Shown here piece by piece: positions 56,699-64,000 of a DNA stretch of 64,000 nucleotides. The stretch is from Escherichia phage APCEc01, in the sequence record NC_029091.1. One strand, 5' to 3'. The translations under genes and the position numbers were made by a program. The notes beneath the pieces were generated by a model, which did not search any database, was not told the DNA's origin, and saw only the letters and a program-made list of their open reading frames with translations. The first letter of the stretch is position 1. Each line of letters opens with the position of its first letter.

Positions 56699-59410
56699 AT
56701 GAAAGAATTTTACTTAACGGTTGAACAGATTGGTGATTCAATTTTTGAACGTTACATCGATTCTAATGGCCGTGAACGTACTCGTGAAGTAGAATATAAA
56801 CCATCACTGTTTGCTCATTGTCCAGAAAGTCAGGCTACGAAATATTTCGATATCTACGGTAAGCCGTGTACTCGTAAGTTGTTCGCTAATATGCGTGATG
56901 CCTCCCAATGGATTAAACGCATGGAAGATATCGGACTTGAAGCACTTGGCATGGACGATTTCAAATTGGCGTATTTGTCTGACACTTATAACTATGAAAT
57001 CAAATACGACCATACAAAAATTCGTGTGGCTAACTTCGACATCGAAGTAACATCTCCGGACGGGTTCCCTGAGCCGTCACAAGCAAAACATCCGATTGAT
57101 GCTATCACCCATTATGACTCAATTGACGACAGGTTCTACGTATTTGATCTATTGAATTCTCCATATGGTAATGTAGAAGAATGGTCTATTGAAATCGCTG
57201 CTAAGCTTCAAGAACAAGGCGGTGATGAAGTTCCATCTGAAATTATCGATAAAATCATTTATATGCCGTTCGATAACGAAAAAGAATTGTTGATGGAATA
57301 TCTCAACTTCTGGCAACAGAAAACTCCTGTCATTTTGACTGGATGGAACGTTGAGTCATTTGATATTCCATATGTGTATAACCGAATCAAGAATATTTTT
57401 GGCGAATCTACTGCGAAACGTTTATCGCCACATCGTAAAACTCGTGTTAAAGTTATCGAAAACATGTATGGTTCTCGTGAAATCATTACATTGTTCGGTA
57501 TCTCTGTTCTTGATTACATTGGCCTTTACAAAAAATTCTCTTTTACCAATCAACCGTCGTATTCTCTGGATTACATTTCAGAATTTGAATTGAACGTTGG
57601 TAAACTGAAATATGACGGCCCTATTTCTAAGCTTCGTGAAAGCAATCACCAACGATATATTTCTTATAACATTATCGACGTGTATCGTGTATTGCAAATT
57701 GATGCTAAGCGTCAGTTCATCAACTTGAGCTTGGACATGGGTTATTATGCTAAGATACAGATTCAATCTGTGTTTAGCCCAATTAAAACATGGGATGCTA
57801 TTATTTTTAATAGCCTTAAAGAGCAGAACAAGGTGATTCCACAAGGTCGTTCTCACCCGGTTCAACCTTATCCCGGCGCTTTTGTTAAGGAACCTATTCC
57901 AAATCGATACAAATATGTAATGAGTTTCGACCTTACATCTCTGTATCCAAGTATTATTCGCCAAGTGAATATTAGCCCGGAAACAATAGCAGGAACGTTT
58001 AAAGTAGCTCCATTGCATGATTATATTAACGCAATCGCTGAACGTCCTTCAGATGTGTACAGTTGCTCTCCTAACGGCATGATGTATTATAAAGACCGTG
58101 ATGGTGTAGTTCCAACTGAAATCACTAAGGTCTTTAATCAACGTAAAGAACATAAAGGTTACATGCTTGCAGCTCAACGTAATGGTGAAATAATTAAAGA
58201 GGCATTGCATAATCCTAATCTTTCTGTTGACGAACCATTAGATGTTGATTATCGTTTCGACTTCAGTGATGAGATTAAAGAAAAGATTAAAAAGTTGTCT
58301 GCTAAATCTCTTAATGAAATGTTGTTTAGAGCTCAACGTACTGAAGTTGCAGGTATGACCGCACAAATTAACCGTAAATTGCTTATCAACTCACTTTATG
58401 GTGCACTTGGCAACGTTTGGTTCCGTTATTATGATTTGCGTAATGCTACTGCAATCACAACATTCGGGCAAATGGCTTTACAGTGGATTGAACGTAAAGT
58501 TAATGAATATCTGAATGAAGTTTGTGGTACAGAAGGTGAAGCTTTCGTTCTATATGGTGATACAGACTCTATTTACGTATCTGCTGATAAAATTATCGAT
58601 AAGGTTGGTGAATCTAAATTCCGTGATACCAACCATTGGGTAGACTTCTTAGATAAGTTTGCACGTGAACGTATGGAACCTGCTATTGATAGAGGTTTCC
58701 GTGAAATGTGTGAATACATGAACAATAAACAACACTTAATGTTCATGGACCGAGAAGCTATCGCTGGTCCTCCGCTCGGTTCTAAAGGTATTGGTGGATT
58801 CTGGACTGGTAAGAAACGTTATGCATTAAACGTGTGGGATATGGAAGGAACCAGATACGCTGAGCCTAAACTCAAAATCATGGGTCTAGAGACTCAGAAA
58901 TCTTCGACCCCTAAAGCAGTACAGAAAGCTCTTAAAGAATGTATTCGTCGTATGCTTCAAGAAGGTGAAGAATCATTACAAGAATATTTTAAAGAGTTTG
59001 AAAAAGAATTCCGTCAATTGAATTATATTAGCATCGCGTCGGTATCTTCTGCGAATAACATTGCTAAATACGACGTAGGTGGATTCCCGGGTCCTAAATG
59101 CCCGTTCCATATTCGTGGAATTCTGACATATAACCGAGCTATCAAAGGTAATATTGATGCACCACAAGTTGTAGAAGGTGAAAAAGTATATGTTCTGCCT
59201 TTACGTGAAGGAAACCCATTCGGTGATAAATGTATCGCATGGCCTTCTGGTACTGAAATCACAGATTTAATTAAAGACGATGTACTTCATTGGATGGACT
59301 ACACTGTTCTCCTTGAGAAGACATTTATTAAACCACTTGAAGGATTCACATCAGCAGCTAAACTCGATTACGAGAAGAAAGCATCTCTGTTCGATATGTT
59401 TGATTTTTGA
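56699..59410 (+). CDS. 43: DNA polymerase gp43 (family B, RB69-type)
   Basis: 903 aa; MKEFYLTVEQIGDSIFERYIDSNGRERTREVEYKPSLFAHCPESQATKYFDIYGKPCTRKLF..., exo motif FDIEV, pol motifs DLTSLYPS and YGDTDS, C-terminal SLFDMFDF. Confidence 0.97.
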   Translation: MKEFYLTVEQIGDSIFERYIDSNGRERTREVEYKPSLFAHCPESQATKYFDIYGKPCTRKLFANMRDASQWIKRMEDIGLEALGMDDFKLAYLSDTYNYEIKYDHTKIRVANFDIEVTSPDGFPEPSQAKHPIDAITHYDSIDDRFYVFDLLNSPYGNVEEWSIEIAAKLQEQGGDEVPSEIIDKIIYMPFDNEKELLMEYLNFWQQKTPVILTGWNVESFDIPYVYNRIKNIFGESTAKRLSPHRKTRVKVIENMYGSREIITLFGISVLDYIGLYKKFSFTNQPSYSLDYISEFELNVGKLKYDGPISKLRESNHQRYISYNIIDVYRVLQIDAKRQFINLSLDMGYYAKIQIQSVFSPIKTWDAIIFNSLKEQNKVIPQGRSHPVQPYPGAFVKEPIPNRYKYVMSFDLTSLYPSIIRQVNISPETIAGTFKVAPLHDYINAIAERPSDVYSCSPNGMMYYKDRDGVVPTEITKVFNQRKEHKGYMLAAQRNGEIIKEALHNPNLSVDEPLDVDYRFDFSDEIKEKIKKLSAKSLNEMLFRAQRTEVAGMTAQINRKLLINSLYGALGNVWFRYYDLRNATAITTFGQMALQWIERKVNEYLNEVCGTEGEAFVLYGDTDSIYVSADKIIDKVGESKFRDTNHWVDFLDKFARERMEPAIDRGFREMCEYMNNKQHLMFMDREAIAGPPLGSKGIGGFWTGKKRYALNVWDMEGTRYAEPKLKIMGLETQKSSTPKAVQKALKECIRRMLQEGEESLQEYFKEFEKEFRQLNYISIASVSSANNIAKYDVGGFPGPKCPFHIRGILTYNRAIKGNIDAPQVVEGEKVYVLPLREGNPFGDKCIAWPSGTEITDLIKDDVLHWMDYTVLLEKTFIKPLEGFTSAAKLDYEKKASLFDMFDF

Positions 59411-59450
59411 TATAATGCCAAGGACGGCCAACTAATTAAATGAGAGAAAT

Positions 59451-60086
59451 ATGAAAACTACTCCTATTACTATCGCTATTGACGCAATCGTAAAACAAGC
59501 TTCATCTCTTGCCACTATGGCTAAAGTAATTAGTCAAAACCCTGCTCGTTATAATGCTATTCTAGAAACTCTTCGACGCCCTGGACTTAGTAATTATGAA
59601 AGCCGGGTAATTATTACAGGTGTTGGTAAGAATGCTAATATCGCAACTAAAGCTTCCGAGACTTTTGCTTCACTAGGTATTCCTAGCATGTATTTGAACA
59701 CCGGGCATTATTCTCATGGTGACGCAGGATTTATTGCGCCTAATGACGTGTTGATTCATATTAGTCGTTCTGGTAAAACTGAAGAAATGATAGGTGTTGC
59801 TAAACATCTTCGTATGATTCGTCCTCAGGTTAAACAGATTCTGTTACATTGTAACCCAGACATTCCACAAGAATACGAAGCTCTTTTTGATTATACGTTC
59901 TGTACCGGTATCGCGGTAGAAGTTGACGAGAACTCTTTAGCTCCGACTATGTCCACTACATTGTTGTTAGCGCTTATCGATACGTTTGCTATCAACCTTT
60001 CGTCTGAACGTGGATTTACCTCTAATGATTTCCTTAAGTTCCATCCAGGCGGTGCACTAGGTGCCATGTTACGAGGCGAACAATGA
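59451..60086 (+). CDS. D-arabinose-5-phosphate isomerase, SIS domain only (KdsD/GutQ-like, no CBS domains)
   Basis: 211 aa; VIITGVGKNANIATKASETFASLGIPSMYLNTGHYSHGDAGFIAPNDVLIHISRSGKTEE and LAPTMSTTLLLALIDTFAINLSSERGFTSNDFLKFHPGGALG parallel the KdsD SIS domain. Confidence 0.8.
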   Translation: MKTTPITIAIDAIVKQASSLATMAKVISQNPARYNAILETLRRPGLSNYESRVIITGVGKNANIATKASETFASLGIPSMYLNTGHYSHGDAGFIAPNDVLIHISRSGKTEEMIGVAKHLRMIRPQVKQILLHCNPDIPQEYEALFDYTFCTGIAVEVDENSLAPTMSTTLLLALIDTFAINLSSERGFTSNDFLKFHPGGALGAMLRGEQ

Positions 60087-60226
60087 AAGCAATAACAATA
60101 GGACTTTTACTATTGATGCTTGTCATGACTATCTACTGGAGCTTAACGGCTCCGGTAATGATTCCAACACTTGTAATTGGATGGATTATGATTGGACTAC
60201 AAGCAAAGTATGAATGCTTTAACTAG
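60083..60226 (+). CDS. small two-helix membrane peptide
   Basis: 47-aa ORF (MKAITIGLLLLMLVMTIYWSLTAPVMIPTLVIGWIMIGLQAKYECFN); start overlaps isomerase stop (ATGA); below the ORF-track length cut-off. Confidence 0.35.
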   Translation: MKAITIGLLLLMLVMTIYWSLTAPVMIPTLVIGWIMIGLQAKYECFN

Positions 60227-60267
60227 AATAGTGTACAATACTCCTACTTACCAATGAGGACTTCAAC

Positions 60268-61953
60268 ATGAAAAAAGCTGTTATTCTTGGTGCTGGACTG
60301 GCAACTCGTTTGTATCCAATAACGCATCATATTCCTAAGGTGCTTGTTAATTATAAACAAGACACTATTCTGAGCAATTTGTATACAATTTATTCTGACC
60401 TTGGCGCAGATGAAATTATTGTAGTAGTTCATTCAAAATTTGCTGAAACTGTTCGAGCTTATTGTGAGCAAGAAGGGTTCAATGTGACTATTCGTACAGT
60501 TGATGAAGCGTATGGTTCTGCTTATGCTCTTGCTAAATTACACAAAGATTTAGACGGCCATAATGTAATTGTTAACTGGTGTGATATTATTCCTGATTTT
60601 GGTTCATGGTCTTGGAATGTTAACGCAATCTATGTTAAGGGTGACGAATGTCGATATAATTTCGACGGTGAAAATATCACTAACGTAGGTTCAACAGGTG
60701 GTAATGTTGTAGGAATTTATCAGTTCAAAGACTGGGAATTCTATATGGGTTCTACCGATGAGGAAATTCATGAATACTGCAAAGGACGTGATTTCGTAGA
60801 ATTCCTTTACGGCAGCGCATTCAATAAATCAGAGCTTATGAATATAATTGATTTAGGTGATATGCCTAAACTTGAAAAGGCTCATGAAGTTCGTGAACTT
60901 AATCGTAGTTTTAATGCAGTTGAAATTGGTGAAGAAACTGTAACTAAATTCGCATTAACCGAACAGGGTCGAGCTCTTCAGAAAGATGAGATTTCGTGGT
61001 ATTTGAAAGTGAAATCAGATTCAGTTCCTCAGTTAGTTTCTGTTAATGAAAATAACTTTGAAATGGAACGCATTAAAGGTAAGCCAGCATTTGAATATAT
61101 TAAATCCAAATCAAGTCTTGCTCGTCCACAAATTGTTGATGCAATTTTAGATGCACTGAAATTCAGCACAGACACTTATTTTGTAAGTCCTGAAACTGTT
61201 CGTCGTGATTTCACTAAAGAATTCTATACGAAAGTTATTGATCGTTGTGAAAGCATTCAACCGTTGATTGATTCATTTGGTAAAATCACACATGTGAACT
61301 ACACTAAGATTGGACGTCTGAAGCCAATGCTGAAACAAGCTTTAGAACACCTTATTCGGTATCATAACCGTTCTCAGGGACAGTACTCTGTTATTCACGG
61401 TGACCCGAACTTCAGTAATACTATGATTACTGATAACGGCGAAGTCAAGTTTATCGACCCTCGTGGATATTTTGGCGAAACCAAGATTTACGGGCCAAAA
61501 TTGTATGATGAAGCTAAAGTGCTTTATGCTGTTTCAGGTTATGATGAATTCAATGCTAATCCGACCTGGGGGCAGTTTACTATTGATGAAACAACTTGTA
61601 ATGTGACTATTAACATCAATCCATTAGTTTACAAATATGGAAAGATGAGTTCGTTTAACGAGTATCATCATTTGGCAGTGGCAATTATCTGGATTGCATT
61701 AGGTGGTTATTTCAAGAATAATCCACTTAAAGCGGTAGCCGCATATTATAAAGGTATGGAACTTCTGACTAAGCAATTACGTAACATGGGCCGTGTACTT
61801 CAGGACGGCTCTATTAGTTATGACGTAGCAGAACCTGTAACGGCTACTCTGATTACAAAAAATCCTGGTAAATGGGTACTAACTGATAAAGAAACTGGTG
61901 TTTCCTATCGTCCAATCGGTGGCGATATCACTCATCAATGGGAACGAATCTAA
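60268..61953 (+). CDS. bifunctional sugar-1-phosphate nucleotidyltransferase / sugar kinase
   Basis: 561 aa; N-terminal MKKAVILGAGLATRLYPIT is the RmlA/GalU/LicC-type G-x-G-T-R-L motif; C-terminal part has kinase motifs HGDPNFSNTMI and FIDPRGYFG (APH/choline-kinase fold). Confidence 0.75.
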   Translation: MKKAVILGAGLATRLYPITHHIPKVLVNYKQDTILSNLYTIYSDLGADEIIVVVHSKFAETVRAYCEQEGFNVTIRTVDEAYGSAYALAKLHKDLDGHNVIVNWCDIIPDFGSWSWNVNAIYVKGDECRYNFDGENITNVGSTGGNVVGIYQFKDWEFYMGSTDEEIHEYCKGRDFVEFLYGSAFNKSELMNIIDLGDMPKLEKAHEVRELNRSFNAVEIGEETVTKFALTEQGRALQKDEISWYLKVKSDSVPQLVSVNENNFEMERIKGKPAFEYIKSKSSLARPQIVDAILDALKFSTDTYFVSPETVRRDFTKEFYTKVIDRCESIQPLIDSFGKITHVNYTKIGRLKPMLKQALEHLIRYHNRSQGQYSVIHGDPNFSNTMITDNGEVKFIDPRGYFGETKIYGPKLYDEAKVLYAVSGYDEFNANPTWGQFTIDETTCNVTININPLVYKYGKMSSFNEYHHLAVAIIWIALGGYFKNNPLKAVAAYYKGMELLTKQLRNMGRVLQDGSISYDVAEPVTATLITKNPGKWVLTDKETGVSYRPIGGDITHQWERI

Positions 61954-62339
61954 TGCACCGTGTAGAAAACATGCTTAATCTTTGTTTTGATGTCGATGAT
62001 TGTATAACAGAGTGGAATAACAATCGTGATTACGTGAACTTCAAACCTGACGTCGAAATGGTGTCTGCCATTAATGCCCTGTATGATGCAGGGCATACCA
62101 TAACGCTTTACACTGCTCGCGGTATGAAGTCAGTAGGTCCTGGTCGTATAGCAATTGACATTCTCCCAAGTCTTATTCAGAACTTGGCAAACATTGGCTT
62201 GAAGTACCATAATTTGCTAACACATAAACCAGTATATGATTGGATTATCGACGACAAAGCTATGCGTCCTGACGAATTCAAAGCTCTTATGAATAAAGGC
62301 GAATTCGAAACATTTAAATCATATAAACCGAATCTATAA
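61953..62339 (+). CDS. small HAD-superfamily phosphatase
   Basis: 128-aa product from ATG overlapping the upstream stop (TAATG); HAD motifs FDVDDCIT, TLYTARG, K, WIIDDK. Confidence 0.7.
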   Translation: MHRVENMLNLCFDVDDCITEWNNNRDYVNFKPDVEMVSAINALYDAGHTITLYTARGMKSVGPGRIAIDILPSLIQNLANIGLKYHNLLTHKPVYDWIIDDKAMRPDEFKALMNKGEFETFKSYKPNL

Positions 62340-62399
62340 TAATTTAAGTAAGACCTGCAAAAAAAAACCATCGCATCAATTAACGCGAGATGCAAAAAA

Positions 62400-63560
62400 A
62401 TGAATACTTTTAAAATCGGAACGAATTTTGATTTAGCTCTTCTTGATAAAATCGTAGAGCTCAATAAAACTTATCCTAATAGCTTGATAAATGAAGTATA
62501 CGGCTCTACAAGAGAAATGGCTTTTGTAGCAGCCAGACCTGATTTTAGGCTTCCTGACGTTGACAAAAAGATGTTAGAAGATTACGTTAAACGTTGTAAC
62601 GAATTAGGTATTTGCTTTAACTATACACTCAACACGATAAATCCTGGTTCAAAAAGAGAACTAGTTGAGTGGAAGAAGAAAGCTATTCAGGATTATGTTC
62701 AGTATCTTTGGTCAATAGGCGTATGGCGTATTACTATCGCTAACCCTGTTGTTATGGAAATTGTTCGTGAAGTCAATAAAGACATTGAGATTGAAGTTTC
62801 AACAATTCTACATGTCGATGCTGTAACTCAAATCAAATACTTGCATGACCAATATAATATCAAAAAGGTCTGCTGTGGAATTCATAAGAACCGTTCAGTT
62901 TCTTTCCTGAAGCGTGCAGCAGAGTTTTGCAATAAGAACAATATAATATTTGAAGTTCTTGTAAATGAGTTCTGTTCTAATGCTGGTAAAGGGTATACAA
63001 CACATTGTAGCTATCGTGACTCTTGCTATATTTTCCATAGTACTGATGTTACAGCTGATGATGCTAAATCCTTAAACGGATATCCTATGCAGCACTGTAT
63101 TAAAGCTCGTGATACAGACCCATTTAACTGGTTGAGAACTCGTTTTGTTCGTCCTCAAGATTTGAAACTTTATAATGATATTGGTATCACTCAATTCAAA
63201 GTTTCAGGACGTACAGGTAGCACAGACTACATTTTGAAAGTTCTTGAAGCATACGCTTCTGAAAAGTTTGAAGGTAATTTGTTAGAACTGTGGAAGCCTT
63301 TAGAGACTATTTTCACTCTTGAAAACGAAACTGAGTTTTCACATACAGTAAATATTGAAACCTCTTTGTTAGATGGCTTTTTAGAAAAAAGGTGGTTCAG
63401 ACATCCAGATTTCGATTGTGCTAATGAAATCTGCGGGACGACGTGTACATATTGTGAAAGATATTATAAACGTCAATTATCTAAAAACGGGTTAGCAGAA
63501 AACTCTATATCTATTATTGATATAACTAACTCTGATGACGCTTTGAGGTACCCGGAATGA
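62400..63560 (+). CDS. peptidase U32 family protein (Fe-S, RlhA/TrhP/UbiU-like)
   Basis: 386 aa; ANPVVMEIVREVNKDIEIEVSTILHVDAVTQIKYLH...IIFEVLVNEFCSNAGKGYTTHCSYRDSCY parallels the U32 core; extra C-terminal CANEICGTTCTYC cluster; assignment from memory, not HMM-verified. Confidence 0.5.
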   Translation: MNTFKIGTNFDLALLDKIVELNKTYPNSLINEVYGSTREMAFVAARPDFRLPDVDKKMLEDYVKRCNELGICFNYTLNTINPGSKRELVEWKKKAIQDYVQYLWSIGVWRITIANPVVMEIVREVNKDIEIEVSTILHVDAVTQIKYLHDQYNIKKVCCGIHKNRSVSFLKRAAEFCNKNNIIFEVLVNEFCSNAGKGYTTHCSYRDSCYIFHSTDVTADDAKSLNGYPMQHCIKARDTDPFNWLRTRFVRPQDLKLYNDIGITQFKVSGRTGSTDYILKVLEAYASEKFEGNLLELWKPLETIFTLENETEFSHTVNIETSLLDGFLEKRWFRHPDFDCANEICGTTCTYCERYYKRQLSKNGLAENSISIIDITNSDDALRYPE

Positions 63561-63796
63561 TTTCTAGAAAAACTTTTAACCACCAACTTAATGAAGAGAT
63601 TTTGACTATGAAACTGAACACTAATGAACAAATTCTTAAAAAGGCCCATCAGGGCCTTTTTGAAACTAAAGCGGCTAAAGTGATTAAAGAACCTGTTCAA
63701 TTAGAATACTACGCTGATGCATTTCTTCATAGTGTTCTTGGAAGTATCGATGCCGAAGCTTTACGTTATATCAATATTGCCAAGAAATTCAAATAA
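63557..63796 (+). CDS. hypothetical protein
   Basis: 79-aa ORF, start overlaps upstream stop. Confidence 0.5.
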   Translation: MISRKTFNHQLNEEILTMKLNTNEQILKKAHQGLFETKAAKVIKEPVQLEYYADAFLHSVLGSIDAEALRYINIAKKFK

Positions 63797-63820
63797 GCTT
63801 TACGAATTGAGTATATAATA
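63794..63820 (+). promoter_or_regulatory. MotA-dependent middle promoter candidate
   Basis: TAAGCTTTA box ending 63802, 11 nt, TATAAT at 63814-63819. Confidence 0.5.
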
Positions 63821-63837
63821 ATTGTATTGAGGTAAAC

Positions 63838-64000
63838 ATGGGAAAACATAACACAATGAAATATATCAAAGCCGCAGATTTTCAAACCGCATTTAAAGCA
63901 GTCAATCGTGAAATTTTAGAAAACCCGGAATTCGTAACTGATTCTCGTATTGGACGTTGTAATGAAATTGGGTCTATGACAGTAGTTGTTGACACTCCAT
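63838..64000 (+). CDS. 42: dCMP hydroxymethylase (gene 42-like), 5' part only
   Basis: Partial ORF MGKHNTMKYIKAADFQTAFKAVNREILENPEFVTDSRIGRCNEIGSMTVVVDTP; EFVTD...IG...VVVDTP loosely parallels T4 gp42 DFVVDKTGVKTIEIIGASFVADEP; runs off window. Confidence 0.5.
   Translation, partial: MGKHNTMKYIKAADFQTAFKAVNREILENPEFVTDSRIGRCNEIGSMTVVVDTP

Follow-up and report, generated by a model that had tools for sequence, protein, structure and literature searches.

Escherichia phage APCEc01 (sequence record NC_029091.1) encodes a 561-residue protein in which a sugar-1-phosphate nucleotidyltransferase and a kinase are joined in one polypeptide. We analysed a 64,000-nucleotide stretch of this record, hereafter the window, near one end of which the fusion gene lies. 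The gene is very probably the Mosigvirus version of the AfhE-type enzyme, which supplies uridine diphosphate (UDP)-D-arabinofuranose for the arabinosylation of 5-hydroxycytosine in phage DNA. As AfhE is described in the paper that cites its characterisation, the fusion catalyses two steps that do not follow each other in a four-step de novo route from ribulose-5-phosphate, and a separate phosphatase acts between them. The enzyme is already known: its role was proposed in 2018, and the family was reported in 2026, in the form in which that report is cited, to be biochemically characterised. Its product would be the sugar donor for arabinosyl-5-hydroxycytosine, the hypermodified base that stands in for cytosine in RB69-like phages and, according to the literature, protects the DNA against restriction enzymes and CRISPR nucleases. 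The subject bears on phage therapy and on the enzymatic synthesis of UDP-arabinofuranose.

Two catalytic domains in a single polypeptide

The initial annotation, made from the sequence alone, had described the protein as a fusion of a sugar-1-phosphate nucleotidyltransferase and a kinase. Both domains were recovered. The Pfam model NTP_transferase (PF00483) matched residues 3-99 with 39.1 bits, against a curated cut-off of 21.2 (E 8e-10), the kinase family APH was matched through homologues (see below), and an AlphaFold2 model built from a 105-sequence alignment contained both domains, with a predicted local distance difference test score (pLDDT) of 95.3 and a predicted template modelling score of 0.92. 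In this model, the N-terminal domain has a Rossmann-like nucleotidyltransferase fold, and the C-terminal domain a bilobal kinase fold with a strand-3 lysine and a helix-C glutamate. A single-sequence AlphaFold2 model (pLDDT 33) was discarded in favour of the alignment-based one. Structure prediction, which had been proposed as a check, thus bore out the two-domain reading. The nucleotidyltransferase occupies about 37% of the protein and the kinase 53%, followed by a C-terminal tail of 10%, in agreement with the split into an N-terminal third and C-terminal two-thirds that was first estimated.

Conservation of the motifs was measured over an alignment of 105 homologues, down to 27% identity. 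The nucleotide-binding signature of the N-terminal domain, GAGLATRL, matches the AAGLGTRL of LicC. It had been announced as G-x-G-T-R-L; the signature is present, with an alanine in place of the second glycine of the RmlA form, as in some family members. P23 and K24 follow it (K24 codon at 60337-60339), with G10, R14, L15 and K24 conserved in at least 90% of the homologues. D106, D195 and D198 of the same domain are invariant, and are putative acidic metal ligands. In the C-terminal domain, the HGD...N loop and the IDxxG motif noticed at first are HGDPNFSN (residues 377-384) and IDPRG (396-400). In the former, G378, D379, S383 and N384 are invariant, while H377 is conserved in at least 90% of the homologues; in the latter, D397, P398, R399 and G400 do not vary. 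The set of catalytic residues K227, E241, H377, D379, N384 and D397 is invariant or nearly so. R326, K417 and K488 are likewise invariant and, with R399, are candidates for a basic pocket near D379 that could bind the 5-phosphate of the sugar. Fold model, motifs and APH matches of the homologues agree in assigning the kinase to the APH/choline-kinase fold and not to the GHMP type, as had been claimed.

MurU, LicC and LicA were among the top structural matches, at sequence identities of only 10-21%, and the best PDB profile match of the N-terminal domain was HddC, from the nucleoside diphosphate (NDP)-heptose pathway. The C-terminal tail follows the pattern TKNPGKWxLxDxETGxxYxP...W, and was modelled with a pLDDT of 83-92. 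It is restricted to T4-like phage homologues and missing from more distant ones. A Foldseek search with the model returned two free-standing proteins of 58-60 residues from uncultured phages (A0A6J7WJH1 and A0A6J5KUX0; template modelling score about 0.72, 36-38% identity), and these matches most plausibly fall on the tail.

An intact version of a gene split in the RB69 record

The window contains the T4-type genes 46, 45, 44, 62, regA and 43, and belongs to an RB69-like, T4-type phage of the genus Mosigvirus, which is the genus of the records inspected (JK42 and RB69). Over positions 59400-64000, identity is 99.1% with Shigella phage JK42 and 95-99% with some 150 further phage records. The fusion protein is 100% identical in amino acids to a protein of vB_Eco_mar005P1, and the profile PHROG 4098 spans its residues 1-561 with profile positions 1-559 (E 6e-295). 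A ribosome-binding site, GAGGA, is found 7 nucleotides upstream of the gene. A scan of positions 59300-64000 for promoters and terminators gave nothing beyond shuffled expectation.

In the GenBank record of RB69, the gene is split into ORF053c and ORF052c. These two open reading frames (ORFs) together are about 98% identical to the window gene over 1686 nucleotides, with a single one-nucleotide indel, and RB69ORF053c shares one 90% cluster with the window protein. The sole indel is an extra C in the RB69 record NC_004928 (L002:4095-5781), placed after the equivalent of window nucleotide 60921 (GCAGTT-C-GAAATT), and it is this C which splits the gene; the window copy has the intact frame. Thomas et al. 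2018 (PMC6024577) had re-sequenced the site, found the extra C to be an error, and named the 561-residue product ORF53_52c. Our comparison confirms the sequencing error reported then, and the RefSeq entry is still uncorrected.

A proposed route to UDP-D-arabinofuranose

Thomas et al. 2018 proposed a role in UDP-arabinose synthesis for ORF53_52c (PMC6024577). Lee et al. 2026 then reported that RB69 DNA carries mono- and poly-arabinosylated 5-hydroxycytosine, not hydroxymethylcytosine, that a thymidylate-synthase homologue makes 5-hydroxy-deoxycytidine monophosphate (5-hydroxy-dCMP), and that RB69 gp52:53 was modelled with a nucleotidyltransferase at its N-terminus and a kinase at its C-terminus (PMC13326640). 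The same paper cites the work of He et al. 2026 (Nat Chem Biol) on phage HY126. According to this citation, AfhE phosphorylates D-arabinose-5-phosphate (Ara5P) at C1 to yield arabinofuranose (Araf)-1,5-bisphosphate, AfhF is a Mg-dependent phosphatase converting the bisphosphate to Araf-1-phosphate, and the N-terminal domain of AfhE makes UDP-arabinofuranose after the AfhF step. The RB69 counterparts are gp52:53 for AfhE and gp51 for AfhF, the HAD neighbour is likened to heptose-1,7-bisphosphate 7-phosphatase, and the sugar transfers are assigned to GT-B enzymes, some arabinosyltransferases of DLP3 being marked as experimentally confirmed (PMC13326640). In Shewanella phage Thanatos, a homologue 54% identical to the window protein was essential for propagation; it was inactive on xylose-1-phosphate with any nucleoside triphosphate, and transferred no sugar to DNA (PMC12838424).

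Transposed to the window, this scheme would start with the conversion of ribulose-5-phosphate to Ara5P by the upstream SIS isomerase or by the host KdsD, as homology suggests. The C-terminal APH-fold kinase would then use adenosine triphosphate (ATP) to phosphorylate C1 of Ara5P and produce arabinofuranose-1,5-bisphosphate, as cited for HY126 AfhE, with K227, E241, D379, N384 and D397 as its predicted residues. The downstream HAD phosphatase, translationally coupled to the fusion gene, would strip the 5-phosphate and leave Araf-1-phosphate, which is the activity cited for AfhF. The N-terminal nucleotidyltransferase (predicted residues G8-L15, K24, D106, plus D195 or D198) would next join Araf-1-phosphate with uridine triphosphate (UTP), releasing pyrophosphate and yielding UDP-Araf, again as cited for AfhE. 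Finally, GT-B arabinosyltransferases encoded elsewhere would move the sugar onto 5-hydroxycytosine in DNA. The 5-phosphate may lock the furanose ring, a form rarely taken by free arabinose, until C1 is blocked; such a lock could be the reason why the kinase precedes the phosphatase and why the product is a furanose. The flanking genes, encoding an isomerase, a phosphatase and a 5-hydroxy-dCMP synthase, fit with a UDP-arabinose role.

The initial annotation had expected an NDP-sugar product and named D-arabinose among the candidate sugars, and the cited account of AfhE would agree with both. It had also expected salvage of a free sugar in two steps. A kinase and a pyrophosphorylase are indeed fused; since the fusion gene is flanked by those of a KdsD-type isomerase and a HAD phosphatase, and in view of the AfhE account as cited, the route would rather start from ribulose-5-phosphate and pass through arabinose-1,5-bisphosphate, with a separate phosphatase between the two activities of the fusion.

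Several points weigh against this assignment. The kinase matches of the protein itself were all below the Pfam cut-offs (APH PF01636, 14.4 versus 23.2 bits; Fructosamin_kin, 17.1 versus 22.4 bits; also EcKL and RIO), so that domain model searches, another check proposed at the outset, retrieved the nucleotidyltransferase directly and not the kinase. APH was matched independently by 10 of 31 homologues (28-73% identity; E ≤ 0.001, best E 6e-10), and together with the fold this indicates, by transitivity, a divergent APH member. A PDB sequence search found no structure of the fusion protein, nor one of AfhE. The kinase substrate and the UTP specificity are taken from a secondary citation of He et al., and the identity of the window protein to the assayed HY126 AfhE is presumed. 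Lastly, Table 1 of PMC13326640 gives another order, Ara5P to arabinose to arabinose-1-phosphate, in which the phosphatase comes first and the kinase acts on free arabinose. That paper is internally inconsistent, its text having the order Ara5P, arabinose-1,5-bisphosphate, arabinose-1-phosphate.

Alternative readings

The order given in that table corresponds to an alternative with the same product: the phosphatase would free D-arabinose from Ara5P, or arabinose would be scavenged, and the kinase and the nucleotidyltransferase would then act consecutively. We consider this unlikely, because the paper's own text, with reference to He et al., presents AfhE as an Ara5P kinase whose Araf-1,5-bisphosphate is dephosphorylated by AfhF. 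Carbohydrate chemistry also argues for the bisphosphate order, as free arabinose is mostly a pyranose and the product a furanose, and so does the parallel with NDP-heptose synthesis, which runs via a bisphosphate, the HAD neighbour resembling heptose-1,7-bisphosphate 7-phosphatase (PMC13326640). The assignment to an AfhE-type enzyme acting before and after the phosphatase is preferred.

Two other readings concern the nature of the chemistry, and each has very little chance of being correct. The rank of LicA and LicC among the fold matches would allow the protein to be a LicA/LicC-like pair in one chain, by which choline or another amino-alcohol is phosphorylated and activated as a CDP-alcohol (CDP, cytidine diphosphate). 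Phosphocholine-type activation had been mentioned initially as an alternative, and it found no support beyond this similarity of fold, at identities to LicA and LicC as low as those given above. The flanking genes encode instead a sugar-phosphate isomerase, a sugar phosphatase and a cytosine-modifying enzyme, the fusions of homologues to SIS and HAD domains (see below) indicate sugar-phosphate chemistry, and the DNA of the near-identical RB69 carries arabinose, a phosphocholine modification being unreported (PMC13326640). Equally improbable is an identity as GlmU, the name ('bifunctional protein GlmU') given to the protein in many GenBank records, or the role of DNA glycosyltransferase proposed in the Thanatos study; in favour, the N-terminus is GT-A-like according to CDD (PMC6024577; PMC12838424). 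Transfer of sugar to DNA was not observed with the Thanatos homologue (PMC12838424), and GT-B enzymes are those to which transfers are assigned (PMC13326640). GlmU itself was ruled out: its models cover residues 3-106 only, with 16-23 bits against cut-offs of 367-718, the left-handed beta-helix acetyltransferase domain is missing, and the C-terminus has a kinase fold.

Genes flanking the fusion gene

The fusion gene belongs to a cluster, located between gene 43 and uvsX, that also encodes the Ara5P isomerase, the HAD phosphatase and the 5-hydroxy-dCMP synthase (Table 1).

Table 1. Position of the fusion gene, of its domains and motifs, and of the neighbouring genes in the window.
Feature	Position	Strand	Remarks
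SIS-domain arabinose-5-phosphate isomerase, KdsD/GutQ-like, without CBS domains	59451..60086	+	Pfam SIS
47-residue, very hydrophobic small ORF (RB69 ORF054c homologue, PHROG 3610), between isomerase and fusion gene	60083..60226	+	
Bifunctional nucleotidyltransferase/kinase gene (RB69 ORF53_52c homologue, AfhE type), 561 residues	60268..61953	+	single ATG-initiated ORF
N-terminal sugar-1-phosphate nucleotidyltransferase domain, residues ~1-210	60268..60897	+	
GAGLATRL nucleotide-binding signature, residues 8-15 (G8-A-G10-L-A-T-R14-L15)	60289..60312	+	
APH/choline-kinase-fold kinase domain, residues ~211-507	60898..61788	+	
Catalytic loop HGDPNFSN (Brenner motif), residues 377-384	61396..61419	+	
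IDPRG metal-binding motif (DFG equivalent), residues 396-400	61453..61467	+	
C-terminal tail, 54 residues (508-561)	61789..61950	+	
HAD-type phosphatase (AfhF type)	61953..62339	+	start overlaps fusion stop codon (TAATG); alternative ATG at 61938
Peptidase-U32-family protein (RB69 gp50 homologue)	62400..63560	+	Pfam PF01136, E 7e-11; PHROG 5757
79-residue ORF without Cys (RB69 ORF049c homologue, PHROG 8601)	63557..63796	+	overlaps U32 stop codon
Thymidylate-synthase-like 5-hydroxy-dCMP synthase, 5' end, truncated by window end	63838..64000	+	translation matches JK42 QEG06160

The isomerase matched the NCBIfam models KpsF/GutQ (E 5e-32) and KdsD (E 2e-30), and the PDB entries 3etn, 5uqi and 2xhz. 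The HAD phosphatase matched the NCBIfam capsule biosynthesis phosphatase (E 4e-13), and shows 100% identity with PDB 9iqw_A over 129 residues; the 9iqw_A construct begins at the Met of 61953. The 5-hydroxy-dCMP synthase of JK42 (QEG06160) is about 98% identical to PDB 9iqc, 9ir2 and 9iqu. The adjacent accession numbers suggest that 9iqw, 9iqc, 9ir2 and 9iqu form a single deposition set, which we infer to be the HY126 structures of He et al.; 9iqw is then most likely AfhF. If the set does come from HY126, this phage is closely related to that of the window. Neither of the two small ORFs had a Pfam match; both are conserved, and each overlaps the stop codon of the gene upstream, the 79-residue one being coupled to the U32 gene.

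Database names in the cluster have not caught up with the literature. Records call the fusion enzyme 'bifunctional protein GlmU' or simply 'hypothetical protein'; the HAD phosphatase goes under 'phosphoheptose isomerase' or 'capsule biosynthesis protein', and the 5-hydroxy-dCMP synthase under 'dCMP hydroxymethylase' or 'thymidylate synthase'.

Upstream of the cluster, gene 43 of the window is intact and encodes 903 residues (56699..59410). In the JK42 record, the annotated coding sequence of the DNA polymerase (L001:2912-6011) is shorter, and is overlapped by a 'hypothetical protein'. A frameshift or an error of annotation in JK42 is the probable cause.

Conservation of the module in other viruses

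In the Dhakavirus JS98 (L011:5062-10175), genes for the nucleotidyltransferase-kinase, the HAD phosphatase, a thymidylate-kinase-like protein, a ThyA-like protein and a glycosyltransferase are kept. Neither a SIS isomerase nor a U32 gene is annotated in the JS98 cluster, which suggests the host KdsD as the source of Ara5P. Thus the phage isomerase is probably dispensable, with KdsD of the host as the likely supplier. Tenacibaculum phage PTm5, a jumbo phage outside the Straboviridae, encodes a 27.5%-identical nucleotidyltransferase-kinase followed by a histidine phosphatase and then by a thymidylate-synthase/hydroxymethylase homologue (L010:5001-7939). This gene order, with a histidine phosphatase and not a HAD protein, argues that the module was kept despite a non-homologous phosphatase.

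Homologues with 29-36% identity are single polypeptides of about 890-955 residues in which HAD, SIS, nucleotidyltransferase and kinase domains follow each other (P0085, P0119, P0089 and P0091). P0119 is recorded with its HAD domain alone, the other domains being deduced from its alignment to the query. Loci of such four-domain fusions are L003:8001-10781, L012:7001-9679, with a paralogue at L012:1-1144, and L013:7001-9862. By the Rosetta-stone argument, the fusion of four domains indicates that the four activities work together. Some other distant homologues have a C-terminus resembling a cupin-type isomerase. The contigs with fusions carry hallmarks of giant viruses, namely MutS with HNH, RNA polymerase subunits, a family-B polymerase of 1553 residues, UCH and glycan-synthesis genes; the L012 fusions adjoin sugar epimerase and GT2 genes, and one four-domain homologue comes from a eukaryotic transcriptome. 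As far as gene content can tell, this suggests NDP-arabinose-type synthesis in Nucleocytoviricota. We tentatively extend the role of the family beyond phage DNA modification, a proposal we hold to be possible and still rather doubtful: the giant-virus-like fusions would provide eukaryotic viruses with NDP-D-arabinofuranose for the glycans of their virions or for their DNA, and the tail of the phage enzymes would be a docking module handing intermediates to the phosphatase or to transferases. If this were true, nucleotide-activated D-arabinofuranose would be a widespread viral metabolite.

The U32 neighbour

The U32 protein of the cluster is entered as "sugar or heterocycle reductase" in PMC13326640. 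Members of the U32 family annotated in E. coli are RlhA (23S rRNA 5-hydroxycytidine synthase), TrhP (tRNA wobble hydroxylation) and UbiU/UbiV (anaerobic ubiquinone hydroxylation). The phage protein may hydroxylate cytosine at position 5 in an oxygen-independent manner, and serve as a backup for the synthase, which requires O2 and flavin. It has two clusters of four cysteines (192/203/209/233 and 340/345/349/352). Alignment to E. coli UbiU, UbiV, RlhA and TrhP was unreliable, and a correspondence of the Cys ligands was not established; this, together with the absence of the protein from JS98-type coliphages, weakens the hydroxylase idea.

Conservation of the U32 protein far exceeds that of the fusion enzyme. 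Across 220 phage records its identity stays at or above 80%, and it is 82% in Thanatos phages and 86% in Klebsiella phages, versus 54% and 43%, respectively, for the fusion enzyme. Among the U32 matches listed and in the tally of the top ten organisms, which leaves seven organism groups unnamed, there was no Acinetobacter or Vibrio phage; the fusion enzyme is present in 57 Acinetobacter and 17 Vibrio phage records.

Comparison with known systems

The closest of the described systems is RB69 ORF53_52c (gp52:53), which is the same gene: it encodes 561 residues, has the same neighbours, and comes from a phage that is also a Mosigvirus. HY126 AfhE shares the order of an N-terminal nucleotidyltransferase and a C-terminal kinase, and is described, in the citation of it, as a bifunctional Ara5P kinase/UDP-arabinose pyrophosphorylase with AfhF as partner (PMC13326640); its likeness to the window protein is presumed.

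Beyond these phage enzymes, an APH/choline-kinase-fold kinase and a minimal RmlA-like nucleotidyltransferase are also combined in AmgK and MurU, for the recycling of N-acetylmuramic acid, and in LicA and LicC, for phosphocholine activation. Both pairs differ from the window protein in that they are separate proteins, perform consecutive steps, and act on unphosphorylated substrates; they share 12-21% sequence identity with it. One-chain combinations of a kinase and a pyrophosphorylase making an NDP-sugar are FKP, the L-fucokinase/GDP-fucose pyrophosphorylase of Bacteroides and eukaryotes (GDP, guanosine diphosphate), and AFKP80 of Leishmania, for D-arabinose and L-fucose. AFKP80 thus activates D-arabinose, and proteins of this build are those to which the initial annotation had alluded. 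However, in FKP and AFKP80 the kinase is of the GHMP type, a domain non-homologous to that of the window protein, the substrate is the free sugar, the steps are consecutive, and the products are GDP-pyranoses.

The logic of the proposed route is that of NDP-heptose synthesis, in which GmhA is followed by HldE or HddA, then GmhB, then HldE or HddC. That route has a bisphosphate intermediate, and E. coli HldE is a kinase/nucleotidyltransferase fusion whose two activities are non-consecutive steps. In both pathways, an isomerase of the SIS type is followed by an anomeric kinase whose substrate already bears a phosphate at its distal carbon, by a HAD phosphatase that takes this distal phosphate off, and by a nucleotidyltransferase. 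The pathways differ in the sugar, heptose versus pentose, and in the kinase, which is PfkB in HldE and GHMP in HddA versus the APH fold here; no PfkB or CTP_transf_like match was found in the fusion protein with Pfam or NCBIfam, so that it is not of the HldE type. The resemblance to the NDP-heptose pathway is one of functional analogy, and not of family membership.

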